Part shown: positions 2,425 through 58,852 of the stretch, in pieces
Numbering within the stretch: position 1 is the first letter of the stretch
Layout of the letters: every line of letters starts with the position of its first letter
IMG/VR virus record: IMGVR_UViG_3300020463_000023
Coordinates: 1 to 58,852 of that record
Direction: 5' to 3' (one strand)
DNA: 58,852 bases
From: a virus
Taxonomy: Duplodnaviria > Caudoviricetes
Made by a program: the position numbers and the translations under genes
Notes under the pieces: model-generated
Told to the model about the DNA's origin: nothing
Database searches by the model: none
Seen by the model: the letters and a program-made list of their open reading frames with translations, nothing else

Positions 2425-2497
2425 AACATTTTGTTACAGGTGCTACGTTCTAAACAAGATCAACTTCGCACGGATGGATGTGTTAAATACTGTTGCG

Positions 2498-2734
2498 ATG
2501 AAGATATTTGAAATCTACAACACAGATGAGAACATAGGGCCTGCTCCCGCAGATGCCTGTTCGAAGCCAGCAAAAGACCTGCCAGCATCGTGGATAGCGT
2601 CTTGTAAATCACAAGGAAAGAGAAAACGCACAGGCAACAGGAACGAGAAGGTTGGTGGGAAGACCATGAAGGTATCCGGCAAGAGGATCAAGGGCAAGAA
2701 GTATGGTGGCCCTTTACCGGATTATTCAAAATAA
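2498..2734 (+). CDS. small basic late protein
   Basis: TAAATA at 2484 then MKIFEI start; ends KKYGGPLPDYSK. Confidence 0.65.
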   Translation: MKIFEIYNTDENIGPAPADACSKPAKDLPASWIASCKSQGKRKRTGNRNEKVGGKTMKVSGKRIKGKKYGGPLPDYSK

Positions 2735-2753
2735 ATTAAAAATTACAGAACCT

Positions 2754-2775
2754 AATAGCGAGCCAATAGCGAGCC
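2754..2775. repeat. 11-bp direct tandem repeat AATAGCGAGCC x2
   Basis: seen directly between convergent genes. Confidence 0.85.
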
Positions 2776-2782
2776 GAGTGTG

Positions 2783-3370
2783 TTATTGTATGTCTATATT
2801 ACTAAGGTCGGAGTATGGTTTGTAGTCGTGTTCGAACTTGCCTGTGTTGATGTATACATCAAGTAATTTGGAGGCACTTTCACACTCCTCATATCTCATC
2901 ATGTAATGATATCCTTGTTTAAAGACTTTTTGGTCTTTTATGTCATTATAAGAATCATCCCTGCCGTCGTAACTCATACTCTTCAATTGTTCGTAGTGCT
3001 CTTTGTTGTCCAATAGTATGGCACCACCCCTTACATTGTCGAGTGGTTTTGTGTGACCAAAACTTAGGCATTGATATTGTCTGCTCCTGTACATGTCCGG
3101 TTTTAGACATCTTGCACTGTCCCACACAGGAGTGCCCAAGAACTGATACTCATCACGCCAGGGACTCATGGAGAACTCGTAATCTACGCCTAATAATTTC
3201 ATCGTCATGGGCACACTGATGTAGGTGTGTGCCGAGAACCTACAGGTCTTGATTTGCAATAACCTGAAGCAGAGTTCTATGGCATGGGTACAACAGTCTG
3301 TGGTCACCACGTAAGGTGCGCCAGTGAAGTTGGCCAACTGCTGTTTAAACTTCCTAACGGATTCTGTCAT
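2783..3370 (-). CDS. short DegT/DnrJ/EryC1/StrS-family PLP aminotransferase
   Basis: TDCCTHAIELC, WDSA, LSFGHTKP (Schiff-base Lys position), GGAIL; only 195 aa. Confidence 0.8.
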   Translation of the reverse strand: MTESVRKFKQQLANFTGAPYVVTTDCCTHAIELCFRLLQIKTCRFSAHTYISVPMTMKLLGVDYEFSMSPWRDEYQFLGTPVWDSARCLKPDMYRSRQYQCLSFGHTKPLDNVRGGAILLDNKEHYEQLKSMSYDGRDDSYNDIKDQKVFKQGYHYMMRYEECESASKLLDVYINTGKFEHDYKPYSDLSNIDIQ

Positions 3371-3965
3371 ACACCTTATCCGCCCACTGTTGGTTCTGCT
3401 CCGCTGTCATGTGGTTGATTGCGCCAGCACTCCATCCAGAATTCACTTTCCAACCACCACTGAATGCATATAAACTTTCATCTATGAATGTTCCTGTTTG
3501 TAATTGGATGCCTGCATCCTTGTTGTCATTACATTCGAAAGGTCTGAAACTCCACATCTGTACAATTTCACTTCGTGCCTGTGATAAAATGTTCTGATCA
3601 TAATGCTTCAATGCATATTCATAGGCCATCTCATCCTTGTCATAGTTGTGCAGGTGCTTCCAATAATCGTCCAACGCTTTGTAAACATTTGGATCGGCGT
3701 CACTCAACGGTTGGGTGTTTGCACTTAATACTAAACTGGGATGATACAACCTGTATGGTTCAGTCCAACAGAATATAGATATATCTGGCACCTTGTCCTG
3801 TGCTATCAATCTGTTGTACTGAAAGAACACACTCCAGATGCTCCTGCCTGGGTGTCCAAACCATCTTATTCTGTCTGCTCCTAGTTTCTGTTGTAGTATG
3901 TTGCACCAACTCTCTGGTTGATTACTTGCACAGAAACTGTCTCCGAAAAATCCTATTGTCTTCAT
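3354..3965 (-). CDS. SGNH/GDSL-like protein
   Basis: start reassigned to MKTIGFFGDSF; GDS block, GxS block, C-terminal NH. Confidence 0.55.
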   Translation of the reverse strand: MKTIGFFGDSFCASNQPESWCNILQQKLGADRIRWFGHPGRSIWSVFFQYNRLIAQDKVPDISIFCWTEPYRLYHPSLVLSANTQPLSDADPNVYKALDDYWKHLHNYDKDEMAYEYALKHYDQNILSQARSEIVQMWSFRPFECNDNKDAGIQLQTGTFIDESLYAFSGGWKVNSGWSAGAINHMTAEQNQQWADKVYDRIR

Positions 3966-3990
3966 ATACTGATAATTATCTACATACATT

Positions 3991-4542
3991 ATGAAATACA
4001 CCTACTCTGATTGGAATCACAAACAAGGCACAGTGCCAGTGCAATGGCAACCAAAGGACTATGAAAGTTTGCCATGGTATGAGAATCCTGATAAGCGGCA
4101 AGGCTTCACAACCGCAGAAGAAAACTACAACATATACAAGGAGAGGGTAGGATGCCTGATACCCAAGTTCGAGCAGGTAGGCAAAGGTGTTTTCATTCCT
4201 GATGATGTTGATAAAGTGTTTGGATATGTGGTTAATTTTTTCAATCTTACAGACACGGTGTACGCCTTCGCAAAGTACACACCTGGACTGATACTGCCTT
4301 GGCACAAGGATAACTATCCGACATACGCCCGAAACAAGAAGGCCAAGGTTGAAGAAATTGTCAGAATAATGATATTCCTACATGACCCTGCTCCTGGACA
4401 CCAGTTATGGATCGAGGATCAGTACTGCACAGGACCAGCAGGTGCATGGTTCAGTTGGCAAGGGGCAACCAAGCACATGGCCGCCAATCTCGGAGAGACC
4501 AACAGGTACATGATACAAATTACAGGAAAAATTAGTAATTAG
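3991..4542 (+). CDS. 2OG-Fe(II) oxygenase (Asp/Asn beta-hydroxylase-like)
   Basis: PGLILPWHKD (HxD), HMAANLG..R.MIQITG. Confidence 0.75.
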   Translation: MKYTYSDWNHKQGTVPVQWQPKDYESLPWYENPDKRQGFTTAEENYNIYKERVGCLIPKFEQVGKGVFIPDDVDKVFGYVVNFFNLTDTVYAFAKYTPGLILPWHKDNYPTYARNKKAKVEEIVRIMIFLHDPAPGHQLWIEDQYCTGPAGAWFSWQGATKHMAANLGETNRYMIQITGKISN

Positions 4543-5701
4543 GTTTCAATATTGTGTGACATTGCCAACTCTGGCCCTCTGGAGAACGCGACATGCCACT
4601 TTTGCGTTTCAGCGTGCCTTGATACCATGCCGCTTGTAATTCTCGATTCCATAAATGATTGTAAAAGTGATTGTGATTATGCTCCAGTATCGGTTCCAAC
4701 TTTTCATAAACCTGTTTGGGATCCTCCTGTGACAACTTATACATAGAGTCTAACAACATTTTCATTCTTTTATCTACGTCCGGCTCAGCGTCATAAGACT
4801 CATCTATTACAGGTGAAAAAGTTTTGAAACCTAAACTTCGGAATGCTTTGAGGTGATGCATGGTGCCCATTATTACAAACGGTCTCTTTGCCACTATAGG
4901 CTTTGCCTCCTTCTCGCTGAACATGGACAAACGGCTGTCGTCGGGTATAACGGTCTCCACTACACAAGAGTAATGGGACTGATTATATATGCTAGGGTCA
5001 ATGAGATCACTGCACCTTAGATTATGATCTTCCGCTATCGACTGTGCTCCAGACTTTCCATCCGTGGGCTTCACAACATCAGGCCCCCAATGTGTCACTC
5101 CTCTGGCATGACAGGTCGAGAAAGTGACCGAGTCTGTCTTATGCTCTTTCAACATGTCGTAAAGTTCTACGTGATGACTGCACATGAGCTCCCAGTGGTA
5201 TTTCTTATCCAGCGAATGCGAAACTTTTTGTAAAAGGGATCTGCAGACCGGAGATGTACGGTAAATTTTATTGCCCTCAAAGAACATGTCATTCAGGTAG
5301 TGCATCGGACGGTTGAGGTGTACATGAGATATTAAATTAGCAAAGAATGTTACAGGATCGTCTTTTGAGAATCTGTTGATGAAATCGTCTGTATAATAAT
5401 AAGGGCCCTCCGCTATGTTGTTTTCATAGTCCCAGCCATGCTTTGCTTCATCTTTCCAGAAAACAAGCGGTTCTCCCAGACCAACATAGACATGATTCGA
5501 CAATGTCATGTGAGTCCTTATCCTGTCTTCCAATGCGGCGAGAGACTGTAATGTTCCATTAAAGTCTTGTAGGTATGAATACTTTAGATCACAAGTAACG
5601 TTTTTAAATTTATCTAGATCTGTGTAGAGTGTATGCTCTACATGGCGATCACGGACACAGTAATGATGCCATTGTTTGTCGATGTATCTTGCTAACTTCA
5701 T
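4532..5701 (-). CDS. glycosyltransferase-like protein (GT10-like C-terminal domain)
   Basis: VVET..FSEK..KPIVAKRPFV..GFKTF..IDESYD motif shared with three other ORFs here. Confidence 0.5.
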   Translation of the reverse strand: MKLARYIDKQWHHYCVRDRHVEHTLYTDLDKFKNVTCDLKYSYLQDFNGTLQSLAALEDRIRTHMTLSNHVYVGLGEPLVFWKDEAKHGWDYENNIAEGPYYYTDDFINRFSKDDPVTFFANLISHVHLNRPMHYLNDMFFEGNKIYRTSPVCRSLLQKVSHSLDKKYHWELMCSHHVELYDMLKEHKTDSVTFSTCHARGVTHWGPDVVKPTDGKSGAQSIAEDHNLRCSDLIDPSIYNQSHYSCVVETVIPDDSRLSMFSEKEAKPIVAKRPFVIMGTMHHLKAFRSLGFKTFSPVIDESYDAEPDVDKRMKMLLDSMYKLSQEDPKQVYEKLEPILEHNHNHFYNHLWNRELQAAWYQGTLKRKSGMSRSPEGQSWQCHTILKPNY

Positions 5702-5739
5702 TTTGTCTACTTATCGTTATAGTAGCACTTAAATACCTT

Positions 5740-6657
5740 GTGCATATATCTACCAAAAATGAATACGGAGAGTTGAAATCGATCATAGTCGGAAGTGTGG
5801 AAAACTTTGAGTGGCCAGCAAATGACAAAGAGTTCGATGAAGGAATTGCTCGATCCACTTATCACCAAACTCTAAACAGAGGCAAACCGCCACAGCATGT
5901 TTTGGATGATACCAGCAGAGACCTGGATCTGCTGTCAGCAATTTTAGAATACAGAGGCATTAAGGTCTACAGACCTGAGATACTTGGGCCTCATTGGGCC
6001 TACTCTGCCAGAGACATATTGTTGACAGTGGGAAACAAAGTCATTCAGTGTCCGACTCCATTTTCCAGTCGTGCTAACGAATTAGACTTGTATCCTTTCC
6101 TGGAAAAAAATACACAATGTGAAATAATCAAGGCCCCTAGACCTAGCAAAAAAACAGATCCAATCTTCGATGCGGCCAACATCTTAAAGATGGATGACAG
6201 GCTGTTGTATTCTCTTTCGCATTCGGCCAACGAAGCAGGAGCAGACTGGTTACAACAACAAGTGGGAAACGAGTTTGAGGTAGTGAAATGGCGTGTGGTT
6301 GATCATGAAATCACACACATCGATTCAACTCTGGCCTCATTGGACAAAAACATTGTATTGGTAAATGCATCGAGAGTGAAGGAAGACCAACTACCTAAGT
6401 TCATGCAGGACTTTACCAAGATATGGGTTGACGACGTCACTGCCGGTACCTTTCATAACTTTCCATACGCCTCCAAATGGATAGGGATGAATGTGCTTTC
6501 ACTTGATCCAGAAACAGTGGTGGTTGATGAGATCCAAACGCAATTAATAGAAAATTTAGAGGCCCATGGATTCAAGATAATTACTACATCAATGACACAA
6601 TCAAGAACACTTGGCGGTGGTTTCCACTGTGTGACATGTGACATGGAAAGAAAATAA
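5740..6657 (+). CDS. amidinotransferase 1 (glycine/inosamine-phosphate amidinotransferase family)
   Basis: NEYGELKSIIVG, RD, FDAAN, HIDST, GGGFHCVTCD catalytic Asp/His/Cys; likely GTG start 5740 after TAAATA. Confidence 0.85.
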   Translation: MHISTKNEYGELKSIIVGSVENFEWPANDKEFDEGIARSTYHQTLNRGKPPQHVLDDTSRDLDLLSAILEYRGIKVYRPEILGPHWAYSARDILLTVGNKVIQCPTPFSSRANELDLYPFLEKNTQCEIIKAPRPSKKTDPIFDAANILKMDDRLLYSLSHSANEAGADWLQQQVGNEFEVVKWRVVDHEITHIDSTLASLDKNIVLVNASRVKEDQLPKFMQDFTKIWVDDVTAGTFHNFPYASKWIGMNVLSLDPETVVVDEIQTQLIENLEAHGFKIITTSMTQSRTLGGGFHCVTCDMERK

Positions 6658-7754
6658 TGTTCAAAGTAACTCACCAATGGAATAAACTTAAAACATGTGT
6701 AGTAGGCAGTGCCTATCCCCCGGAACTGTTTGACTTTATAAAGGATGTTAATTTAAGAAAAACTTTTGAAACATTGGCAATGGAGACGGAAGAGGACATA
6801 AAAAAACTTGTAACGTTTCTCGAAACATCTGGGATCAATGTGATAAGGCCAAAGATGCCAGATAACCTAGAAGAATTCAAGATATCAAACGGATACATTG
6901 CACCACCAATATCCGCTAGAGACTTCATGGCCATGATTGACGATAAACTTTACTATCCTGGATTGCCTAATCTTAATCACGCATGGATGGAGTTCGCAAA
7001 CATGAATGATGTTCAGTCAAAGAATGACCTGCAGAACCAAGAATTGAATCAACAGTGGTTGGAGTTTCAAAAGCAAGACAAATACATATTTGACCAGAAG
7101 ATCAGTTTCTATAAAGACATTTTTACACTTGCACTGCAACAAGGAAATGAGGTTGTTGCCAGTCCAATTGATTACATGAACTCATCATTTATTACCAGAT
7201 TAGGCGATAGAATGATCGTTGGCACCCAAAACTATCATGATGACCATGACAGCATCAAAAACAAATTCTCACATATGTTTCCTGGCAAGCAAATTTTTGT
7301 TGCTTCTAGCGAAGGCCATTCGGATGGATGTTTTACTCCCATATCCGAGAATCTTATCATATCTGCCTACGACACTATAGATTATAACAAGATATTCCCC
7401 AACGCAGAAGTAATCTCTGTTCCAGCGGAGATCACTTTAAAAGACGATAAGTTCAAAAAACAGATGCTTACCGCAGAACACAAATGGTTCCTTGAAGGAA
7501 TGGAGAACAACAAGGATCTCGTGGACATGGTTGATTACTACTTTAACACCTGGATCGGTGATGTGAACGAAACGGCGTTCATGGTCAACATATTAATGCT
7601 TGACGAAAAGAACGCGGTATGTTCAACTGACAACAAGCAGGTCAGAGAAGCCATGCACAGGCACGGAGTTGAATTACACGTCACACCTTTCAGACACAGA
7701 TGGTTCTGGGACACAGGTATACATTGCCTAACACAGGATCTGGACAGAGAATAA
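6657..7754 (+). CDS. amidinotransferase 2 (divergent paralog)
   Basis: WNKLKTCVVG, PPISARD, GHSDG, GIHCLTQDLDRE. Confidence 0.8.
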   Translation: MFKVTHQWNKLKTCVVGSAYPPELFDFIKDVNLRKTFETLAMETEEDIKKLVTFLETSGINVIRPKMPDNLEEFKISNGYIAPPISARDFMAMIDDKLYYPGLPNLNHAWMEFANMNDVQSKNDLQNQELNQQWLEFQKQDKYIFDQKISFYKDIFTLALQQGNEVVASPIDYMNSSFITRLGDRMIVGTQNYHDDHDSIKNKFSHMFPGKQIFVASSEGHSDGCFTPISENLIISAYDTIDYNKIFPNAEVISVPAEITLKDDKFKKQMLTAEHKWFLEGMENNKDLVDMVDYYFNTWIGDVNETAFMVNILMLDEKNAVCSTDNKQVREAMHRHGVELHVTPFRHRWFWDTGIHCLTQDLDRE

Positions 7755-8935: not shown

Positions 8936-9548
8936 AAATATTGGTATGGACACGGTTGAGCAATTCGAAAAAGAAATTGCAAACTTTTATGATGCACCCT
9001 ATGCCGTTGCAACAGACAGTTGCACACACGCAATAGAACTTTGTCTAAGACACAGGCCACCAGCACCGGGCATAGAGTTGTCTGTTCCTTCAAGGACCTA
9101 TATCAGTATTCCTTTCACTTTGATAAAGTTGGATCTCCAATGGAATTTTGTTGATCAGGTGTGGCAAGATTATTATTACATCGGCGGCACAAACATCATA
9201 GACGCCGCAGTGTTTTTCCAAAGAGGCGGATACATCAGAGGAAACTACATGTGTCTAAGTTTCCAATTCAAAAAGGCATTGAGCCTAGGACGCGGTGGTG
9301 CAATACTATGCGATAATCTAGCCGACTACGAGCAATTGAAGATGATGAGTCATGATGGCAGGAAAATTGATGCTCCATGGCGTGAGCAAAACATCGCAAA
9401 AGTTGGATATCACTATTACATGACTCCGGAAACCGCAGATCTAGGGATACAAAAACTTCAACACGCTGTACCTAAACCAACTCAAGGCAGTGAGGATTAT
9501 CCATTCCTTCCAAACATGGATGTGTTCAAGCAACTGGATAAAAATTAA
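8925..9548 (+). CDS. short DegT-family aminotransferase (paralog of 2783-3370)
   Basis: ATDSCTHAIELC, IDAA, LSFQFKK, GRGGAIL, GYHYYM. Confidence 0.8.
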   Translation: MANKNIGMDTVEQFEKEIANFYDAPYAVATDSCTHAIELCLRHRPPAPGIELSVPSRTYISIPFTLIKLDLQWNFVDQVWQDYYYIGGTNIIDAAVFFQRGGYIRGNYMCLSFQFKKALSLGRGGAILCDNLADYEQLKMMSHDGRKIDAPWREQNIAKVGYHYYMTPETADLGIQKLQHAVPKPTQGSEDYPFLPNMDVFKQLDKN

Positions 9549-10528
9549 TTTGTTCGTTCTACATCAACAGTAATACAATGGAAACATCCGCCTAGAGTAC
9601 GGGCATGTCTCATGGGTAGCATGGCAGAATCTATTTTGTATTTTGCTAATTCTTTTCTAAGATTTTGCTGGTGTTCTTCCAGTACCACTAAATTTTCATT
9701 TATAGATAAAAGATTTACATTGATCCATGGACTAGAATTGCAATGGCCTGGATAATGACCTATGTCAACTGGTTCCGGGGCATTGATTACGTCCCAACTA
9801 CGCAATGGCAAAGGTAACTGTGACTTGTCTTTGATCCTCGAGGGGTTCACTAACAAGAGTCCTTCCCTTAGTAAGGCGATGGTGCTGTCCAAGTGCATGT
9901 AGGAATAAACGTCCTCGATAGTATGCACTTTCGCAGACTGTCCGACTATCTCCTGTAAAGTATCAGCACCTTTACGATTACCACTGTTACTCACAAGGTA
10001 ATACAGATTGTCATTGTGTTTCAGAATGTTGGCCGCATCAAAGCAAGGCTCCGTTTCGTTCAAGGCCAGCACGTTGGGGTCGCCCACGCAACCTAGATTA
10101 TACAAACTATCTTCACGTTCTATAGTGATGTGATGTCTGACAGTATCAAATTTATCAAATAGTTTGTCATATGCTCGGTGCTCACTGGCCCTCGCTCTCA
10201 AGGACATTGGTGTATAGATAACATTGTGGCCATGCACCAACACCGTGTCTCTTGGACAATAGGTGTAGTATTCTGGATCATGTTCTGGGTCCGGCCTCAA
10301 AACATTGATTTTTTCGCCTTTCAAAAAATCAATAAAGATAGCGATGTCTTCATTGGTTTCATCAATCACCTGCTGTGGATACAGGCCTTGCCCAGGAAGG
10401 TCGCTGTCTTTTGTTTTATCAGCGTAATTCACACACCTCATGCTGATGTCATTGATTGGTATCTTGGCCCCTGTGGCATCTCCGACGATCACTGTTTTCA
10501 GTTGGCTGTATTCGTTCCTGCTTAACAT
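9545..10528 (-). CDS. amidinotransferase 3
   Basis: NEYSQLKTVIVG, YCPRD, FDAAN, HLDST, GGCFHCITVD. Confidence 0.88.
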   Translation of the reverse strand: MLSRNEYSQLKTVIVGDATGAKIPINDISMRCVNYADKTKDSDLPGQGLYPQQVIDETNEDIAIFIDFLKGEKINVLRPDPEHDPEYYTYCPRDTVLVHGHNVIYTPMSLRARASEHRAYDKLFDKFDTVRHHITIEREDSLYNLGCVGDPNVLALNETEPCFDAANILKHNDNLYYLVSNSGNRKGADTLQEIVGQSAKVHTIEDVYSYMHLDSTIALLREGLLLVNPSRIKDKSQLPLPLRSWDVINAPEPVDIGHYPGHCNSSPWINVNLLSINENLVVLEEHQQNLRKELAKYKIDSAMLPMRHARTLGGCFHCITVDVERTN

Positions 10529-13631: not shown

Positions 13632-13753
13632 ATTGTTTCCTTTTCCTTTATTATTGTTATATGGTTACGTAACTCTGGAGTTTCAATCTCTGTTATCCTA
13701 CGTTCCATGTTTACAATTATATACTAAAACGTGTGAAATGTCAACCAGGAGCA

Positions 13754-25503: not shown

Positions 25504-27162
25504 ATGCACTATGATAGCAAGATTTACCAGTTGAACTCTTTGCGACTGGGCCTGATACACGAGGACAACATCCAAAACAAACCTAGTATTTTTGTTGCAG
25601 TTGGATCTCAGGCCGTAGAAACCAAGAGCAGAATCAAAAAATACATAGACCTCGACCAGGCAGGCACACACAACATCATCATCATTCCCCACGACTTCGA
25701 TGGAACCGAGCCGGGAGACAACCACGAAATTTACACCTACTATGAAACACAATTGGGTGTTGAATTCTATCTCACTGAAAAAATCCCCCTCGACCATGTT
25801 TTCTTCAAGGACTTCGGCAAGCCCATGGAGAACTTCACCGAATACCATTTTGACGAAAGTGCAAGATTCAAAAAGCGGAAATGTGAATCAGGATTTGGCA
25901 AGAGCAAGGTCTTCTGCGACAAGCCCTTCGATCACAACTACGTCCACCCGGACGGCAGAATAAGATTGTGTTGCACTACCAAACAAAACCTACCTACCAA
26001 CAACGGGTACAATCTGTTCAACGCTGGCACACACAGCGTCGACGACTATTGGAACAGTGCTAGGATGAAAGAAGTACGCAGGAAGATGATTGCGGGCGAG
26101 AAGATAAAGGACTGCGAACGATGTTATCAGCAAGAGCAACAGGGTGTAAAAAGTATGAGAAGCACACAGTTCATGGAAGATTACATCAGGGACACCCTGC
26201 CCGATGGCACGTATCTCAAATCAGCAAACACAATGCAAATGCAACTGGGGAACATCTGTAATCTCAAGTGCAAGATGTGTAGTCAGGAGTACAGCCACAT
26301 GCACGGACTGGAGACGCTAGCCATAGGTGAACAGGATCCAGAATGGTTCCATTGGGTCAAGGAGCAAGGAGCAAACGTCAACAACTGGACCAACGATCTA
26401 GGACGCAAGGAGGAATGGTACAAAAATCCTGACACAAAACAAAAGATGTTTGATCACATCAGTAAAAACATTGAACAACTTGTGGTGATCGGAGGTGAGC
26501 CCACCCTTATCCCGGAGTTCTATGAACTGTTCGAACACTGTGATCAGCAAGGGACAATAGGAGACAAGGGTGTAACCATAGTAACAAATTTAACAAACAC
26601 AAACGAAAGACTCACAAAGTGGTTGCCAAAGTTAAAAAACTGGACTATATGGGCCAGTGTGGATGGGGTAGGTGACAGGACAGAGTACATACGGTACCCA
26701 AGTAAGTGGCAAAAGATTCTCGAGAGCCTTAAGTTCTATAGACAGAACCTAGGCACCAATGGTAACATAACTTTAAGCCCTGCGGTTCAGTTGCTGAACA
26801 TAGACCAATTGGACGACATCATAAAATGGTGGAAGGACTGGTGCGGGGGTGAACTGAATGACCAGTTTGGATGGACATGGTTGGCCACTGTTTGGTATCC
26901 TTTGATATGCAATCCAAGTATAGCACCGCGTGAATGGAGACTGAAAGTGGCAGACAAACTTTCCAATTACCAGTTTGACAATTTCTATGAAAACATAGTA
27001 GAGTCTCTCCGCGAAGACAAACACACCGAGGAGCAGTACAGAGAGCTACAAAAATCATTCATCAAGTACAATGATCGACAGGACCAGTTCCGGCATGTCT
27101 CACACACTTGGCGACAACTGTTGCCCGATCTGGATCAGTCTTTGACAAAATCATTAGGATAA
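25504..27162 (+). CDS. radical SAM protein with N-terminal twitch/SPASM-like domain
   Basis: C..PF..H.DG.IRLCC, C.RC, CNLKCKMC (CxxxCxxC), GGEP, TN, SVDG. Confidence 0.88.
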   Translation: MHYDSKIYQLNSLRLGLIHEDNIQNKPSIFVAVGSQAVETKSRIKKYIDLDQAGTHNIIIIPHDFDGTEPGDNHEIYTYYETQLGVEFYLTEKIPLDHVFFKDFGKPMENFTEYHFDESARFKKRKCESGFGKSKVFCDKPFDHNYVHPDGRIRLCCTTKQNLPTNNGYNLFNAGTHSVDDYWNSARMKEVRRKMIAGEKIKDCERCYQQEQQGVKSMRSTQFMEDYIRDTLPDGTYLKSANTMQMQLGNICNLKCKMCSQEYSHMHGLETLAIGEQDPEWFHWVKEQGANVNNWTNDLGRKEEWYKNPDTKQKMFDHISKNIEQLVVIGGEPTLIPEFYELFEHCDQQGTIGDKGVTIVTNLTNTNERLTKWLPKLKNWTIWASVDGVGDRTEYIRYPSKWQKILESLKFYRQNLGTNGNITLSPAVQLLNIDQLDDIIKWWKDWCGGELNDQFGWTWLATVWYPLICNPSIAPREWRLKVADKLSNYQFDNFYENIVESLREDKHTEEQYRELQKSFIKYNDRQDQFRHVSHTWRQLLPDLDQSLTKSLG

Positions 27163-27176
27163 TATATAATATGAGT

Positions 27177-37252: not shown

Positions 37253-37458
37253 TCCTCTGTCTTTTTGCAACCTATCTCAATACTTTCATAGGGTTCATTA
37301 TACATTGAGAATATGTCAGTCATTCCATAGAAACGGAACTCAGCATCTCGTTCACATTCATTTAATGTCTGGTATGTGACATTATCGCTATCATCGAAGT
37401 TAGTGCATTGGACTTCGCCGTTGACGAGAATACACATCACCATGAAAAGTTTATACAT
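37249..37458 (-). CDS. small four-Cys exported protein (family member 1)
   Basis: MYKLFMVMC..C..T..EC..C; TAACTA-N5-ATG. Confidence 0.65.
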   Translation of the reverse strand: MYKLFMVMCILVNGEVQCTNFDDSDNVTYQTLNECERDAEFRFYGMTDIFSMYNEPYESIEIGCKKTED

Positions 37459-37467
37459 AATAATAGT

Positions 37468-37740
37468 TATGGCCCGTTCTGTTGCAAGGTGGGCCAAACC
37501 CCTGAAATTATTGGTTATTACGCCGCTAATCTCAATTCAGGCATACTGACTGTTAAATCAGCAAACCCTAATGCTTTTTTGTTTGCATTTAAAAACTGGA
37601 CGTAACCTCGTGCCTACTGGAAGTTCTCGTAAAAAGTTTCAACGTGAATCGATCCTAATTCCACCCCTCAAGTTTCATTGCTTAAATGGTGGAGTGGCTG
37701 GGAATTGCACCCAGGTCTTCACCGTCTATTGATTTTTAGT
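37468..37740 (-). ncRNA. ssrA: permuted two-piece tmRNA (alphaproteobacterial arrangement)
   Basis: acceptor piece first: T-arm CTGGG-TGCAATT-CCCAG then CCACTCCACCA (3' end 37687); 19-nt spacer; coding piece starts GGGGTGG..GGATCGA at 37667, giving a G3:U70 stem; tag 37586-37518 ANKKALGFADLTVSMPELRLAA then TAA TAA; 3' hairpin GGCCC..GGGCC; outer ends approximate. Confidence 0.92.
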
Positions 37741-37807
37741 CAACAAACTCAATTATAATTATAGCCTAAGGTTGACGTCTTGTCAACTTTGTGCTAAATT
37801 AGTTTAT

Positions 37808-49701: not shown

Positions 49702-50346
49702 ATGTCCAAAAAAAAGATTAAATCCACGATCTACGTCACACTAGGTGTCATCGTTGTTATTACGTTGACCTATGTGTACGGCACATTCAATCCAAACCAA
49801 CACGTCATAACAAAGATCGAAGATCAGTTTCACAAGCATGAAATGAAGATCATAGAAGAGTTAGGCTTGAAAGAACCAGAGTTTGAATTCACAGACAAGC
49901 CTTCATTTATAAATGCTACATCAAATTGCGTGGCCTATCTAAATTGGACCACTGACAAAGAAAAAAGGATTCCTATCAGTATAGTAATAGCAATGGCAGG
50001 CATAGAGAGTGCATGGGGACAAAGCAGATTCGCCCGTGAAGGAAATGCCCTCTTTGGCGTAAGGACTTGGGATTTGGAAAACACTCCACACATGAAAGCA
50101 CTTGGTAATCCAGATGCCAGTTGGGGAGTAAAGAAATACAAGACCAAATGCCAAAGTGTAAAAGACATGATACGAATACTGAACACGCACCCGGCCTATG
50201 ATAAGTTCCGTCAATACAGGACAGCACAATTGGACGCAGGTGAATGGAATTACAGTGAACTTCTATCAGGTATGACTGCTTGGAGCACCAATCCAAATTA
50301 CCAGAAAATAATACTTTCAACCATAGTTGACAATAAACTACCTTAA
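49702..50346 (+). CDS. GH73/Bax-like glucosaminidase with N-terminal TM anchor
   Basis: A.A.IESAWGQSRFA.EGNALFG, LN.HPAY, WST.P.Y. Confidence 0.82.
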   Translation: MSKKKIKSTIYVTLGVIVVITLTYVYGTFNPNQHVITKIEDQFHKHEMKIIEELGLKEPEFEFTDKPSFINATSNCVAYLNWTTDKEKRIPISIVIAMAGIESAWGQSRFAREGNALFGVRTWDLENTPHMKALGNPDASWGVKKYKTKCQSVKDMIRILNTHPAYDKFRQYRTAQLDAGEWNYSELLSGMTAWSTNPNYQKIILSTIVDNKLP

Positions 50347-50360
50347 CAGTATAATTTAGA

Positions 50361-53984: not shown

Positions 53985-56042
53985 ATGTTTATCGCGATAC
54001 TCACATTACTATCGGCACTGTCCATTTCAGGGGTGGCAATCTTCTATTCCGTTATTGGACTTGCGACCATCTTCCCAGGTGCATTCGTACCTGTTGTGAT
54101 CATGGGTGGAGTATTGGAAGTGGGCAAACTGATAACGGCCTCATGGCTGTACAGGAACTGGAAGTTCACTCCGTTCATGCTGAAAACCTATCTTACGACT
54201 GCTGTTATCATATTGAGTTTGATCACGAGTATGGGTATCTTTGGATTCCTATCAAAGGCACATCTGGAACAGAACCTAGCATCAGACACACTGATACAAC
54301 GTATACAGATACTTGAGGACAAGATAGAAAGTGAGAAGATGTCTATCGAAAGACAGACTCTCATAATCAACAGGGCAGAGAAAGCCATCAGCAGAGACAC
54401 AGGCACAGCATCAGGTGATATCGAAGTTCAACAATCAATCATTGCAGATGCTAATGAAAAATTGAAAACACTACTTGCGGTCGAGACCAACACGATACGA
54501 GATCTCAACGACAGGCTGAATACAACGGTCAAAGATCTCAACGACAGGCTTAAAACATTAGACAAAAACGTCAGTGATGTGTTGACATCAAACAAATCAT
54601 TCTTCAATGAAGAGAAAGCGGCCGCGGACCTTAAAGCGTCACAGAAAGTGGAGCGTGAACAGATAGCGAACAAAATAGAAGAAGCACAGGAAACGATCGC
54701 GATCAAGATAACAGAGGCAGAGAAAAGGATAGCAGAACTAAAAACAGACCACAAGACAGAGATAGCCAAAGCACAGGAGATCATAGCAAACATGAGGACA
54801 GGATCCCAGGACAACAAGGGACAGTTCACCAAAGAGATTGAGACAGCAGAGAAGAAGATATTTGACTCACAGGGCAACATAGACCTATACATTGTGGAGA
54901 AGCAACCGCTCGAGAAGGACATGCTGACGCTGGAAGCAGAAATAGGACCTGTGAAGTACATAGCGGCATTGGCCGTGGATTGGGGTATAACGGACCAGGT
55001 AGAAACTAGCAAGGCTGTAAGGTGGGTTATATTGCTGTTGATCGTGGTGTTTGATCCACTTGCTGTGTTACTATTGATTGCGGCCAACCAGAGTTTGATG
55101 AGGAGATTCCCACCCGAACCACCCAAGCCACAGGAGATAGTGGATCTGGAGAAGCCAGACGAGGAGGGCATTGATCTCAAATGGAATGCAATGATGGATA
55201 AGTCTGATGCGGCGGCCAAGATGGAACAGGCCACTCAACAACTACAGGAATGGAAGGACAAACTAGAGTCGTTCAACAGCAAGGTAGAGAAACCTGAAGC
55301 GAAACCTGTTGAGATCATACAAGAAGACGACGATGTGATCCCACACATAGATCTCGTAGGCCAAAAAAAAACTGAAGACAAAGAAATAGTAGCAGATAAC
55401 ATAGATGGATTTGATCCAGATGAAGTTGCATATGATTGGGCCACAGAACCAAAAGTTGGCAAAGACAAGCAGTTAGAAGAATTCCAGAAACGTGAGCAAG
55501 AAGAACTTGCCGCACTCCAAGAGTATGCACGTAAGGCCATGGAAGAAAATGCAACAACAGTAACGGTTGAAGAGGCATTGAAAATGTCTGAAGCAGAAAG
55601 TGTTGAGACACCTATACAAGAAGAACGTATCAAACCTGACCTAACGGAAGTTATTGAACCAGAAGCCGAAATAGAAAAACCAAAGGATGTCGTCAAAAAT
55701 TCAAAACCCAGAGTGATGAGGACAATACGACCAACCGAGGTCAGGCCCCCAAAGCCGATTCTGAGTAATTGGCAAAGAGCTGAATTACTCGACAACTTCC
55801 ACAGAGAACATGGCAACTTCGAAGACGTCCAAGGATACGTGCAGAACGAAGAGCAGGGCGATACCACTACCTGGAAAAAAATAAAGAATAAAACCACGAC
55901 AGAAGAAGACTACCACTCAAGAATGGAACAGAGGATTGAGGATTTACTGGCAAAAGTTGAAAACAAAGAAATACAACTTTCAGACTTGTCCGATGCAGAT
56001 CAAAAAGTTATACTAGAGATTATAAATCAAAAGAATGGATAA
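53985..56042 (+). CDS. membrane protein with long coiled coil and acidic tail
   Basis: three N-terminal TMs (LEVGKL), coiled coil, EAEIGP.KYIA..VFDPLA TM. Confidence 0.8.
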   Translation: MFIAILTLLSALSISGVAIFYSVIGLATIFPGAFVPVVIMGGVLEVGKLITASWLYRNWKFTPFMLKTYLTTAVIILSLITSMGIFGFLSKAHLEQNLASDTLIQRIQILEDKIESEKMSIERQTLIINRAEKAISRDTGTASGDIEVQQSIIADANEKLKTLLAVETNTIRDLNDRLNTTVKDLNDRLKTLDKNVSDVLTSNKSFFNEEKAAADLKASQKVEREQIANKIEEAQETIAIKITEAEKRIAELKTDHKTEIAKAQEIIANMRTGSQDNKGQFTKEIETAEKKIFDSQGNIDLYIVEKQPLEKDMLTLEAEIGPVKYIAALAVDWGITDQVETSKAVRWVILLLIVVFDPLAVLLLIAANQSLMRRFPPEPPKPQEIVDLEKPDEEGIDLKWNAMMDKSDAAAKMEQATQQLQEWKDKLESFNSKVEKPEAKPVEIIQEDDDVIPHIDLVGQKKTEDKEIVADNIDGFDPDEVAYDWATEPKVGKDKQLEEFQKREQEELAALQEYARKAMEENATTVTVEEALKMSEAESVETPIQEERIKPDLTEVIEPEAEIEKPKDVVKNSKPRVMRTIRPTEVRPPKPILSNWQRAELLDNFHREHGNFEDVQGYVQNEEQGDTTTWKKIKNKTTTEEDYHSRMEQRIEDLLAKVENKEIQLSDLSDADQKVILEIINQKNG

Positions 56043-56346
56043 TATAAAAAACAAGATAGGAAATGTAACTTTGGTTACCCCTCCGTCGATGGTAGACCCA
56101 AATGGAGTCAGTTTCACCATTGTCGACCTAGATGAGGAGCAGAAGAAAATTTTTTCCAGTAAATTGGACGAACACTTTCTTAGTAGTGAAATCACAGTTT
56201 TTGTGTGGGATGGTAACAGTAGTAACGAGAAGTGGCTCGAAGAAGCAAATTTAAAAAGTGATTACGTGATTCAAGGAACACAAGATATTATTAAACAAGT
56301 GGAAACAATAAAGGTAGAGCATGACAGAAGAAAGTTTGATCTGTAA
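56035..56346 (+). CDS. hypothetical protein
   Basis: overlaps both neighbours; TLVTPP. Confidence 0.65.
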   Translation: MDNIKNKIGNVTLVTPPSMVDPNGVSFTIVDLDEEQKKIFSSKLDEHFLSSEITVFVWDGNSSNEKWLEEANLKSDYVIQGTQDIIKQVETIKVEHDRRKFDL

Positions 56347-57571
56347 TTTTTGCAGTAAATCAAGAAAAGACGTCACAAAGATGATAGTCGGTGCCAAGAA
56401 GACATCCATCTGCAATGAGTGTGTCACTCTTTGTGTAGAAATACTGGAAGAAGACGTGATAAAAGCACGTAAAGAGAAACTGTACGCAGGAGACAAGAAC
56501 ATTCTCAATCCTGTGGCAATCAAAGAACACCTTGATCAATATGTAATAGGACAGGACGCCGCAAAGACAGTGTTGAGTGTCGCTGTGGCAAATCATTACA
56601 AAAGAATAGTACAACCACCCATTGATTTTGACCTAGACAAATCTAATGTTATGGTGTTGGGAGCCACAGGAGCAGGGAAGACGCTGATGGCAAGGACAAT
56701 AGCAAAATATCTTGATGTACCATTTGCAATCGCGGATGCGACAACTCTCACAGAGTCAGGTTACGTAGGAGAAGACGTTGAGAATGTTGTGCAAAAACTC
56801 TACGCCAATGCAGATGGCGATATTGAAAAGGCACAGAAAGGCATCATCTTTATAGACGAAATCGACAAGATATGCAGGAAAGGTGAAAACACATCGCTGA
56901 CCAGGGACGTATCTGGCGAGGGTGTGCAACAAGGATTGTTAAAAATTGTTGAAGGAACTGAATGTAGAGTGCCGCCCCATGGTGGACGTAAACATCCTGA
57001 CCAACAGACCGTGACCATAGACACGTCAAACATACTCTTCATCGTGGGTGGTGCGTTTACTGAACTGGAGAAACAGATAAGAAGGAAGAAGGCATCAGGG
57101 GGTATAGGATTTGGAACTAAACTGCAGGAACAAGACGACAGGAATTACCTGTCTGAAGCACAGCCTGAAGACCTGATCAAGTACGGACTGATACCAGAGT
57201 TTGTTGGTAGGTTCTCCATGATCACCAACATAGATCCGTTGAGTGAAGCACAACTGATAAGAATACTGACAGAACCAAAAAATGCTATCCTCAAACAGAC
57301 TCACTATCTCTTTGGACTGGACAACATAGACATTGAGTTTACCAAAGAGGCCAAGCAGTGCATCGCACGTAAGGCCAAAGAGTTAGGGACCAACGCAAGG
57401 GGGCTGAAAAACGTAGTAGACACAGTGGTTCTGCCTTATCAGTTCGACGCAGAGGAGATGAGAAACAGAGGAGTGTCCAAGATTCAGATAACTAATCAGG
57501 TGGTTGACAACGGAGCAGACCCTGTGTTAGTATTTAGAAAAACGAATGGAATATCAAAAAAACAAAGTTAG
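56321..57571 (+). CDS. clpX: ATP-dependent Clp protease ATPase ClpX
   Basis: CxxC..CxxC zinc domain, GATGAGKT, GYVG, IDEIDK, RDVSGEGVQ, RKH, IGF, PEFVGR, ARGL. Confidence 0.96.
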   Translation: MTEESLICNFCSKSRKDVTKMIVGAKKTSICNECVTLCVEILEEDVIKARKEKLYAGDKNILNPVAIKEHLDQYVIGQDAAKTVLSVAVANHYKRIVQPPIDFDLDKSNVMVLGATGAGKTLMARTIAKYLDVPFAIADATTLTESGYVGEDVENVVQKLYANADGDIEKAQKGIIFIDEIDKICRKGENTSLTRDVSGEGVQQGLLKIVEGTECRVPPHGGRKHPDQQTVTIDTSNILFIVGGAFTELEKQIRRKKASGGIGFGTKLQEQDDRNYLSEAQPEDLIKYGLIPEFVGRFSMITNIDPLSEAQLIRILTEPKNAILKQTHYLFGLDNIDIEFTKEAKQCIARKAKELGTNARGLKNVVDTVVLPYQFDAEEMRNRGVSKIQITNQVVDNGADPVLVFRKTNGISKKQS

Positions 57572-57839
57572 ACCCAAGTTCAAGAAAACAGAAAGACCTC
57601 TGGGTTTCCAAGGTTACTACGTGGAAGTACGTGAAGGTGAGGATGCCGTTAGGGCATATAGAAAAATCAAGAGATGGATCAAGGAAGACAAGTTCATAGA
57701 TCAGATCAGAGCCAACAACACCTATCAGAAACCATCAGAAATCAAGAGAGAAAAAGCCAAAGAAAAGAGAAAAGTCCTACGTAAACTGCGTAGGGAACGT
57801 GACAGTAATCTGTCACTGCGTCCACAGAGAGGCAGATAA
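57546..57839 (+). CDS. rpsU: ribosomal protein bS21
   Basis: VEVRE..A.R.IKR..E....R..YQKPSE.KR.K. Confidence 0.8.
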   Translation: MEYQKNKVRPKFKKTERPLGFQGYYVEVREGEDAVRAYRKIKRWIKEDKFIDQIRANNTYQKPSEIKREKAKEKRKVLRKLRRERDSNLSLRPQRGR

Positions 57840-57860
57840 TTTACCAAACAAGGTCGCAAT

Positions 57861-57893
57861 TTGACATATAGCACATATATGTTATAATAAATA
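57861..57893 (+). promoter_or_regulatory. overlapping sigma70 and late promoters for hsp20
   Basis: TTGACA-N16-TATAAT overlapping TAAATA. Confidence 0.65.
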
Positions 57894-57897
57894 CAAT

Positions 57898-57959
57898 TGA
57901 AGATTGCTATAGATAGGATCTTCATACATTAACCTTGCTAACATAGGAGGACAGCAATG
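57898..57959 (+). promoter_or_regulatory. ROSE-like RNA thermometer
   Basis: 5' hairpin TGAAGAT/ATCTTCA; CCTTGCT (57933) pairs with AGGAGG (57945) with a bulged G. Confidence 0.7.
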
Positions 57960-58406
57960 ACAAAACATCTATCTATTTTTAATAATCTAAGACCATACAC
58001 CGTGGGGTTCGATGACTGGTTCGACCACTTTGAACACATGATGGACGACAGTTTCTTTAGAGGAAACAGTAATTTTCCACCATACAACATAGTGAAGACT
58101 GGTGATAATACCTACGATGTTGAACTTGCTCTAGCAGGATTTGGCAAGGATGACATCATAGTTGAGTACAAGGAAAATCAACTGACTGTGAAATCTAAAC
58201 CAAACAAAGAGCCAGCAGACGAAGTCGAGAAATACGACGACGGAGTACAACACAGAGGCATATCAAAAAGAATGTTCACAAGAACTTTTACCATTGCCAA
58301 TGATGTTGAGGTCAAAGGTGCAGAACTTAAAGATGGTTTGCTTAAAGTGAGCATGGAGAGAATCATTCCAGAGCACAAGAAAGCAAAAACTATCGAAATC
58401 AAGTAA
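57957..58406 (+). CDS. small heat shock protein Hsp20 (IbpA-like)
   Basis: GFD..F, FPPYNI, E.ALAGF, HRGIS.R.F.R.F, A.LKDGLL, IEI. Confidence 0.95.
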   Translation: MTKHLSIFNNLRPYTVGFDDWFDHFEHMMDDSFFRGNSNFPPYNIVKTGDNTYDVELALAGFGKDDIIVEYKENQLTVKSKPNKEPADEVEKYDDGVQHRGISKRMFTRTFTIANDVEVKGAELKDGLLKVSMERIIPEHKKAKTIEIK

Positions 58407-58420
58407 AGCAAAACAAATAG

Positions 58421-58445
58421 ATAGGGTGGTAAAACACCCTATCCA
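58421..58445 (+). terminator. hairpin, probable terminator
   Basis: ATAGGGTG-GTAAAA-CACCCTAT; weak U tract. Confidence 0.55.
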
Positions 58446-58492
58446 AATTGACAATTACAACAGATGTGCTATAATAATGCATTATACAAGTT

Positions 58493-58789
58493 ATGACAGA
58501 TATACAAACACTTACTAAAGAAAAAATTAAATTGGACGAGCCTGGACTTTATGATGTGGTATTCCTTAACGACAACATCACCTCAATGGAATTTGTTGTT
58601 CGAGTACTAAAACAAATTTACAACAAGACCCAGGACGAAGCAAACTCGATTACCAAGAGGATCCACGAGCACGGACAGGGTGTCGTTGGATCATATGTTC
58701 ACGAAGTTGCCGAACAAAAAGGAATCGAAACTACACTGGCCGCACGCCAAGAAAATTTTCCTCTTCAAGTTAAAGTAAAGAAGCAGTAG
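58493..58789 (+). CDS. clpS: Clp protease adaptor ClpS
   Basis: Y.V.FLND..T.MEFVV.VL..A..I..IH..G.GV.G.Y..EVAE.K..FPL. Confidence 0.92.
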   Translation: MTDIQTLTKEKIKLDEPGLYDVVFLNDNITSMEFVVRVLKQIYNKTQDEANSITKRIHEHGQGVVGSYVHEVAEQKGIETTLAARQENFPLQVKVKKQ

Positions 58790-58810: not shown

Positions 58811-58852
58811 ATGGAATCTTACAAAATAATAGATCATGAGTATGATGCGTTG
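58811..58852 (+). CDS. start of next gene (partial)
   Basis: TAAATA-N6-ATG, open to window end. Confidence 0.45.
   Translation, partial: MESYKIIDHEYDAL

Follow-up and report, generated by a model that had tools for sequence, protein, structure and literature searches.

Each part of the gene block analyzed here has already been described from jumbo phages. The block consists of clpX, rpsU (encoding bS21), hsp20 and clpS, and it lies in IMG/VR record IMGVR_UViG_3300020463_000023, a linear viral DNA of 58,852 bp that was analyzed over its entire length and is called the window below; the record is rated about 20% complete, which implies a genome near 300 kb. The closest described systems are Atu_ph07, AP-J-162 and Phosso, T4-like jumbo phages of Alphaproteobacteria that also carry ClpX, ClpS, Hsp20 and S21 (PMC6102473, PMC11242549; here, as for every paper cited, our statements refer to the parts of the text that were available). 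Atu_ph07 and AP-J-162 hold six or seven Clp genes besides Hsp20 and S21, and AP-J-162 also carries a transfer-messenger RNA (tmRNA) (PMC6102473, PMC11242549). In Atu_ph07 and Phosso, a translation-initiation gene directly follows clpX, as it does in the window, although theirs is initiation factor IF-3 and that of the window is bS21. In these three phages the genes are scattered, with IF-3 and a topoisomerase as neighbors of clpX, whereas the window has a tight block of four genes. Moreover, they encode ClpP, ClpA and ClpB, whereas neither ClpP nor ClpA has been found so far in the subclade of the window, and their ClpX proteins are only 47-48% identical to the window ClpX.

A part of the arrangement is also seen in the Pelagibacter phage HTVC008M, where S21 is followed by one unknown gene and then by an Hsp20 that is 65% identical to the Hsp20 of the window. 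The S21 of HTVC008M is, however, host-like, with 24% identity to the window bS21 over 38 residues. No ClpX of a Pelagibacter phage appeared among the top ten organism names or the 40 of 187 records listed, HTVC008M not having been checked directly. Peptides of the HTVC008M bS21 were detected in ribosome fractions by Mizuno et al. 2019 (PMC6375957), and in the survey of 900 phage genomes by Chen et al. 2022, the ten-gene neighborhood of bS21 included Hsp20 (n=127) as well as two Clp protease pVOGs (n=50 and n=47) (PMC9723584). In the sections available, both papers report counts and not an ordered clpX-rpsU-hsp20-clpS unit (PMC9723584, PMC6375957). Bacillus phage G combines ClpX, ClpP and tmRNA in one phage, with clpP-clpX adjacent (PMC12484599); unlike the window, it has a cell-like clpP-clpX operon, its ClpX groups with Bacillota ClpX in our tree, and the annotation shows no S21, Hsp20 or ClpS gene in the 6 kb or so around its clpX. 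Iyer et al. 2021 described ClpP, ClpS, ClpA and ClpX in jumbo phages and proposed that phage ClpS feeds host ClpAP (PMC7824862), and Al-Shayeb et al. 2020 described phage S21 proteins with basic, aromatic N-terminal extensions, as well as phage tmRNAs (PMC7162821). The "Moraphage" lineage, considered as a further relative, was set aside as a different one, with Bacteroidota hosts and ClpA as a core gene (PMC12619734, as far as that text was available).

The window thus illustrates clearly, though not for the first time, that phages can bring protein quality-control genes of their own. In the literature compared, we did not find stated the strict pairing of clpX and rpsU across a deep clade, the consensus promoters, or the conservation of a long tmRNA tag at the peptide level. 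Our main reading, to which we assign a probability of about 60%, is that the four genes form a conserved block for proteostasis and translation in uncultured marine T4-like jumbo phages, inherited vertically and not captured recently from a host.

The block is conserved across a deep clade of phages

The four genes are contiguous and stand head to tail on the plus strand. The first, clpX (56321..57571), encodes a full-length AAA+ unfoldase of 416 residues with an N-terminal C4 zinc domain; rpsU (57546..57839; 97 residues) has its start codon inside the end of clpX; hsp20 (57957..58406; 149 residues) encodes a small heat-shock protein of the alpha-crystallin family; and clpS (58493..58789; 98 residues) encodes a member of the N-degron adaptor family of ClpA/ClpC-type unfoldases. 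The ORFs (open reading frames) and the family scores bear out this placement, which had been proposed in a sequence-only reading of the same DNA.

A ClpX search of IMG/VR returned 407 related stretches, and the best 80 were taken as loci. Fourteen of the 80 are close to the window (ClpX 65-94% identity) and form one clade with it (support 100). For S21 we used a hidden Markov model (HMM) of our own, built from the S21 sequences that Pfam found on the small ORF after ClpX; a host-like phage S21, taken as positive control, scores 58.9 bits. By this HMM, S21 follows ClpX in 66 of the 76 loci that extend at least 400 nucleotides beyond ClpX, directly adjoining it in 65, and no S21 was found in the other ten (L025, L027, L028, L029, L031, L032, L056, L067, L073 and L079). 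The idea, based on tblastn, that bS21 is limited to the close clade was rejected as a divergence artefact, since both Pfam and our HMM detect S21 clade-wide. Among the 38 loci with at least 9 kb downstream, Hsp20 is present in 37, ClpS in 37, and S21, Hsp20 and ClpS all three in 32. Given this recurrence in relatives down to 46% ClpX identity, the clpX-rpsU-hsp20-clpS arrangement is far beyond chance, and its gene order goes back to the ancestor of a broad clade of T4-like jumbo phages from aquatic environments.

Bacterial ClpXP-SspB-tmRNA and ClpAPS systems share protein families and motifs with the phage genes, including the LAA end of the tag, but differ in gene order. In cellular clpX loci, clpP lies within 3 kb in 53/80 cases and S21 in 0/80. 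With 65 of 76 phage loci against 0 of 80 cellular loci, the pairing of clpX and rpsU is specific to phages, and it suggests a functional tie between proteolysis and translation initiation. Within a widespread group of ocean jumbo phages, few non-structural gene orders are conserved as tightly as this block, and it offers a well-defined system in which to ask why protein-degradation genes and ribosome genes stand next to each other in large phages.

In some relatives, the slot between ClpX and ClpS holds further genes, namely DnaK, GroES-GroEL (L049), IF3, peptide deformylase and Fe-S assembly genes, so that the block acts as a kind of gathering site for genes of folding and translation. Insertions in this slot were seen at L011:5636-7528, L012:12216-14105, L049:11627-13555, L048:11223-11780 and L024:12927-13421. 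Gene order outside the block is poorly conserved: against G016, a relative of 230 kb with the same block, ORF matches number 19/143 for G012 and 19/88 for the window, and they are scattered. Projecting the position of ClpA-ClpP from G016 onto the window was rejected because of this scattered order of the matching ORFs.

The block is probably an old phage possession

Among the matches listed, the nearest cellular ClpX proteins come from many phyla and reach 40-55% identity. In a FastTree phylogeny of 157 ClpX rows, the 77 IMG/VR rows, including the window, fall on one side of a branch with support 99; the ClpX of Atu_ph07 and of Phosso stand next to these 77, and the 75 cellular rows together with phage G lie opposite. 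G016 (ClpX 55% identical to that of the window) carries a T4-type Gp23 capsid gene (E 9e-100). The window itself has PHROG matches to a virion structural protein, a tail spike, PAAR, an endolysin and phrog_455, a family shared with T4-like marine phages; the phrog_455 protein and Hsp20 have their best isolate matches in the Pelagibacter phage HTVC008M and in cyanomyoviruses. Terminase_6C was found in 0/5 records. Seawater DNA runs of four studies hold at least half of the sampled words of the window. On these sequence comparisons, we read the block as an old phage gene block of marine T4-like jumbo phages. The host is probably alphaproteobacterial, judging from the alpha-type tmRNA and the Caulobacter match of ClpS.

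The same data bear on whether the stretch could be cellular DNA, either a small alphaproteobacterial genome or a mis-binned contig. Cell-like genes are present (ClpX, S21, ClpS, tmRNA and RNR in the window; Suf, CsgG and DnaK in relatives), and IMG/VR labels 4 of the 14 close records "provirus". We nevertheless consider this explanation extremely unlikely, in view of the phage structural PHROG matches in the window, the Gp23 capsid gene in a relative with the same block, the ceiling of 55% identity to cellular ClpX among the matches listed, and the lack of a clpX-rpsU pairing in all 80 cellular loci.

The encoded proteins keep the motifs of their families

ClpX exceeds the cut-offs of two equivalog models (NF003745, 532.8 bits against 359; TIGR00382, 496.3 bits against 370.75), its zinc domain matches zf-C4_ClpX PF06689 over residues 7-44 (46.6 bits), and the protein aligns over its full length with ClpX chains of solved structure (E 1.5e-130). 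Both CxxC pairs, the GYVG pore-1 loop and the Walker B motif IDEID are present in 79/79 aligned phage ClpX sequences. The arginine finger EFVGR and the sensor-2 motif NARGL are in place, and the pore-2 loop RDVSGEGVQ and the GGRKH loop, identical to solved ClpX in the alignment, occur in 15/15 close-clade sequences. The only motif that deviates from the solved chains is Walker A, which reads GATGAGKT (GPTGSGKT in solved proteins), still fits GxxGxGKT, and has this form in 14 of the 15 close-clade sequences. The ClpP-docking IGF loop reads GIGFG in ten of these 15, GMGFG in four and GMGFN in one, and an IGF or MGF tripeptide is mostly kept across the wider phage clade too. ClpX therefore looks functional, with unfolding and delivery to ClpP as the activities predicted from its motifs, and the zinc domain, Walker A variant and GYVG, RKH and IGF loops listed for it in the sequence-only reading are all present on alignment. 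That reading had also cast ClpX as a "specificity part" working with catalytic cores from elsewhere, a description that falls short, ClpX itself being an ATPase motor.

The bS21 protein passes both family thresholds (PF01165, 34 bits against 27; TIGR00030, 34.6 against 28.95), with the core at residues 26-80, and it matches solved bS21 chains (E 1.4e-4). Ahead of the core lies an N-terminal extension of 25 residues (57546-57620), basic and aromatic, in which the motif NRPLGFQGYYVEV is conserved among close relatives; this extension fits the description given by Al-Shayeb et al. 2020 (PMC7162821). More than 1000 relatives of bS21 were found in metagenome proteins, the best 120 listed being 91-99% identical; one protein cluster with 94% identity to bS21 is recorded on a contig of 108,836 bp.

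Hsp20 matches PF00011 (59.4 bits; cut-off 20.8) and phrog_432 (E 4.4e-45), and ClpS matches PF02617 (83 bits against a cut-off of 23). Hsp20 is not an IbpA equivalog (NF008013, 89.8 bits, below the cut-off of 212), and ClpS likewise stays under the NCBIfam equivalog cut-offs, as detailed below; on these scores both are divergent members of their families. The best solved relative of ClpS is Caulobacter ClpS (E 1e-17), with which its LNDNITSMEF segment and a His align, so that the pocket Asn, the first Asp, Thr, Met and His are kept. Asn, Asp, Thr, the gatekeeper Met and His are the residues that we take to form the N-degron pocket in the Caulobacter and E. coli structures. Across 68 phage ClpS sequences, the residue at the third pocket position varies among D (22 sequences), E (26) and N (20); the His is present in 68/68. 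The EVAEQK segment of ClpS aligns with Caulobacter EVAETK, and an E-x-x-E-x-K stretch, presumably the surface that contacts the ClpA N domain, occurs in nearly all 68. ClpS thus keeps the predicted N-degron pocket and ClpA-contact residues and looks functional.

These motifs also bear on the possibility that the block serves virion production only, with ClpX acting as a ClpP-independent unfoldase or remodelling chaperone that, together with Hsp20 and, in relatives, DnaK or GroEL, would help the very large particle to fold and assemble, and with ClpS and tmRNA as passengers. Chaperones do occupy the same slot in relatives (DnaK at several loci, GroES-GroEL at L049), and translocase or assembly roles have been proposed for the ClpX and ClpA of jumbo phages (Iyer et al. 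2021, PMC7824862, in the part available). Yet all 15 close-clade ClpX sequences keep the IGF or MGF tripeptide, which would be needless without ClpP, and relatives carry ClpP. ClpS, moreover, is not known to have a role without a ClpA/ClpC protease. We consider a block devoted to virions alone improbable.

Consensus promoters precede hsp20, clpS and the tmRNA gene

A perfect sigma-70 consensus promoter precedes hsp20 at 57861..57888 on the plus strand (TTGACA-16-TATAAT with TG; 12/12 hexamer positions), and another precedes clpS at 58448..58475 on the same strand (12/12, with an extended -10 TG), leaving a short leader only. Across the window, six perfect TTGACA-N16-18-TATAAT sites were observed against 0.02 expected from shuffles. 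One of them, at 37758-37786 on the minus strand, belongs to the tmRNA gene ssrA. In close relatives, the promoter is perfect before hsp20 in 12/13 sequences, before clpS in 6/12 of those holding the site, and before the tmRNA in 6/13. The six perfect sites look like a class of strong host-type promoters that host polymerase may use. Between hsp20 and clpS, a terminator scan (on the minus strand) also detected a G+C-rich hairpin with an 11-pair stem (58418..58445), possibly a transcript end or a stabilizer.

Such promoters enter into a further explanation, according to which phage ClpX and ClpS would act in counter-defence, competing with or redirecting host Clp proteases and thereby sparing labile host antitoxins and other defence triggers from degradation, or destroying defence proteins. 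Turnover by Lon or Clp is a requirement of many toxin-antitoxin and abortive-infection systems, and the action of ClpA on some substrates is inhibited by ClpS; both facts would suit this role. The consensus promoters of hsp20 and clpS would fit early expression if the host sigma-70 holoenzyme reads them. Against it, the genes flanking the block include none identified as defence or anti-defence, and conservation of the whole block over a deep clade with varied hosts fits housekeeping better; we regard counter-defence as very doubtful.

The phage tmRNA carries a long tag conserved as a peptide

The ssrA gene was located by ARAGORN at 37427-37779 on the minus strand (37427..37790 with its 5' promoter) and encodes a two-piece, permuted tmRNA of the alpha type, scoring above the gathering thresholds of two Rfam covariance models (RF01849, 85.5 bits against 50; RF04321, 88.6 bits against 47). 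That the phage has its own tmRNA, with a tag ending in LAA, is thereby confirmed. Its tag has 22 codons followed by a stop and ends in RLAA, and it is longer than the usual cellular tags, which have about 10-14 residues. The length of 22 is found in 14/14 sequences and the RLAA end is invariant. Over the same 14 sequences, six codons of the tag core ALGFADLTV differ synonymously and a single change is non-synonymous, and the five positions that follow the core vary. The pattern fits selection acting on the peptide, though constraint by RNA structure may contribute. ARAGORN reported a shortened tag in L103 and L106 (set L090-L106), in both of which the full 22-codon frame is present and the call of the resume codon differs.

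A check of the co-occurrence of ssrA with clpX in related phages, proposed in the sequence-only reading, found an alpha-type tmRNA in 13 of the 14 close relatives and in 5 of 36 other records. The standard one-piece tmRNA (RF00023) reached its gathering score in 0/37 records, the matches being tRNA-like. In the window ssrA lies 18.5 kb from clpX on the opposite strand, and in relatives it lies 10-22 kb upstream, mostly on the opposite strand; it is a genome neighbor and not part of the clpX unit. One more distant record with the same block, G019 (L095, G019:83200-83900), has an alpha-type tmRNA with the short tag ADENLALAA; two ClpP genes and one ClpA-like gene were found in the same record.

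Possible partners of ClpX and the proposed working of the block

In the window, profile searches found no ClpP (PF00574, 0/1), Clp_N (0/1) or SmpB (PF01668, 0/1), as the sequence-only reading had observed from the ORFs; in a record that is about 20% complete this absence says little. The search proposed for clpP and smpB was extended to the relatives. ClpP is present in 33 of 50 more distant records, often in two copies and usually 4-7 kb downstream of clpX, and both types of phage ClpP keep the Ser, His and Asp positions. Starting instead from ClpP, with an alignment of four phage ClpP proteins, gave 80 loci, none with a stretch of at least 80% nucleotide identity to close-clade DNA; the best reach 65-75%, on conserved genes, so that no link to the subclade emerged. 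ClpA-like ORFs of 762-774 residues occur in 6 of 50 records, or 6 of 36 when the more distant ones are counted, all on contigs of at least 109 kb. SmpB (PF01668) was found in 0 of 50 related records, which are fragments, and thus in 0/51 with the window; the adaptor SspB was found in 0/6. In G016, the genes DnaJ-ClpA-x-x-ClpP form another proteostasis cluster at a distance of about 65 kb from clpX, with DHFR and thymidylate synthase coming next (L111, G016:78000-90000; ORFs 1621-2463, 2467-4767 and 5713-6321). Retention of an IGF or MGF tripeptide by every one of the 15 close-clade ClpX sequences argues that some ClpP partner, phage or host, exists for the ClpX of the subclade. ClpP and ClpA may be encoded elsewhere in the unsampled 80% or so of the genome, as in relatives, or may be those of the host.

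In our main reading, that of a vertically inherited proteostasis and translation block, host RNA polymerase would transcribe hsp20, clpS and ssrA strongly from the sigma-70 consensus promoters. The ClpX hexamer would dock through its IGF loops on a ClpP barrel and degrade proteins with C-terminal degrons, among them chains tagged by the phage tmRNA, which itself would need host SmpB; ClpS would pass N-degron proteins to a ClpA-ClpP protease. In parallel, bS21 with its basic N-terminal extension would enter host ribosomes and bias initiation, and Hsp20 would hold unfolded proteins. The net effect would be a greater capacity for proteolysis and ribosome rescue during takeover.

Several results weigh against this reading or narrow it. 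The 80 loci were picked by similarity to the query ClpX and include several near-duplicates, so that their counts describe a sample and are not independent events. A ClpP partner was not found in the subclade, where records are all at most 39% complete: both ClpP and Clp_N score 0/14 in the close relatives, and a downstream walk over 36 records, starting from a 429-residue protein about 24 kb downstream of clpX in G009 and looking for ClpP only, met it in the distant G075 (53% identity) alone. ClpS falls below every NCBIfam ClpS equivalog cut-off (best NF000669, 85.1 against 149). As for the host, no near match of the tmRNA was found in 401 sampled alphaproteobacterial genomes, in which three matches of 34-51 nucleotides have uninformative tags. 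Contigs from the RNA libraries of four studies cover the 3' end of clpX, rpsU, hsp20 and clpS at 90-99% likeness, but these could be DNA carry-over and, being only 90-99% alike, many come from relatives; such contigs carry no information on transcription, strand or level, and neither do the parts of the block that they leave uncovered. Finally, 31 of 36 more distant block-bearing records, which are fragments, gave no tmRNA. The link between ClpX and tmRNA is plausible, consisting of co-occurrence and a common promoter type, and the stronger claim that the module is functionally matched to its own tmRNA finds no specific support: the ClpX loops are canonical, ssrA lies far off on the other strand, and in these 31 records the block was seen and a tmRNA was not found.

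The partner results bear most directly on the proposal that the phage borrows the catalytic cores of its host. In its full form, a subclade without ClpP and ClpA of its own would assemble chimeric proteases in which ClpX and ClpS come from the phage and their respective partners, ClpP and ClpA-ClpP, from the host, and a phage-specific tag would help to reprogram both degron pathways. The zero counts for ClpP and Clp_N speak for this, the more so as the contigs of the close relatives jointly sample a span that begins about 70 kb upstream of clpX and ends about 27 kb downstream of it, and a further overlapping contig (81% identical), which extends the subclade by about 10 kb, also lacks ClpP; in most of the distant relatives, ClpP is no farther than 4-7 kb downstream of clpX. 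The retained IGF loop and the tmRNA of 13/14 close relatives, with its conserved and unusually long 22-residue tag, would fit as well. However, the limited completeness of the subclade records and the poorly conserved order outside the block leave room for the genes elsewhere, and in the nearest large relative, G016, ClpA-ClpP lies beyond the span sampled. The RKH and pore loops are canonical, with no sign of specificity matched to the phage tag, and a tag ending in LAA should be readable by any ClpX. The borrowing claim was drawn from a fragment of about 20%, the wider clade with the same order does encode ClpP (33/50) and ClpA-like proteins (6/50), and the chimeric idea is not yet supported by a complete genome. 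We judge it unlikely, if worth keeping in mind.

A bolder version would have the subclade lose the ClpP and ClpA of its relatives and run host-hybrid proteases fed by a phage tmRNA tag under peptide selection. An adaptor encoded by phage or host would then use ALGFADLTV as its handle, and the translationally coupled clpX-rpsU pair would link the takeover of initiation to the clearing of stalled or host chains. We offer this as a speculation with a rather low chance of being right.

Genes around the block

The block is preceded by two ORFs on the plus strand. The first, orf685 (53985..56042), is a predicted membrane and coiled-coil protein, function unassigned, that heads an overlapping run orf685-orf103-clpX-rpsU; it has no Pfam, NCBIfam or PHROG family above threshold, and the clusters nearest to it in the ESM Atlas are hypothetical proteins from viruses only. 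Most of the best 80 of the 407 loci have a relative of orf685 at a distance of 1-4 kb upstream of clpX. The second, orf103 (56035..56346), is a small protein for which none of the three family collections gave a match; 11 of the 14 close relatives have a weakly conserved version of it (32-57% identity), and in the more distant of the same 80 loci it was not found. The genes overlap by 8 nucleotides (orf685/orf103), 26 nucleotides (orf103/clpX) and 26 nucleotides (clpX/rpsU), which suggests that the run from orf685 to rpsU is one transcription unit with coupled translation.

After clpS, an ORF (58821-58852, plus strand) runs off the end of the window. In close relatives, a conserved ORF of 113-126 residues follows clpS (L009:12549-12929, L006:12448-12789, L012:14465-14809); it overlaps the clpS stop in L006, L009, L011 and L012 and has no Pfam family. 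Its product could be a partner of ClpS.

Besides those of hsp20, clpS and ssrA, the sequence scan placed perfect promoter sites at 13716-13744 (minus strand), 27142-27170 (plus) and 50327-50355 (plus). Three paralogues of phrog_25854, a phage family without assigned function (5629-6657, 6657-7754 and 9545-10528), surround a UDP-glucose dehydrogenase gene and an aminotransferase-like gene in the window. Farther out, 10-27 kb downstream of clpS, close relatives (L006, L009, L010, L012 and L108-L113) carry a long run of cell-like auxiliary genes. It includes Fe-S and redox functions (Suf, IscA, NifU-type assembly, glutaredoxin, ferredoxin and peroxiredoxin), envelope functions (CsgF/CsgG curli secretion, a TonB-receptor plug, a PstS-like protein and KDO8P synthase) and, in addition, ThyX, a DegP-like protease with PDZ and a CHASE2 adenylate cyclase.

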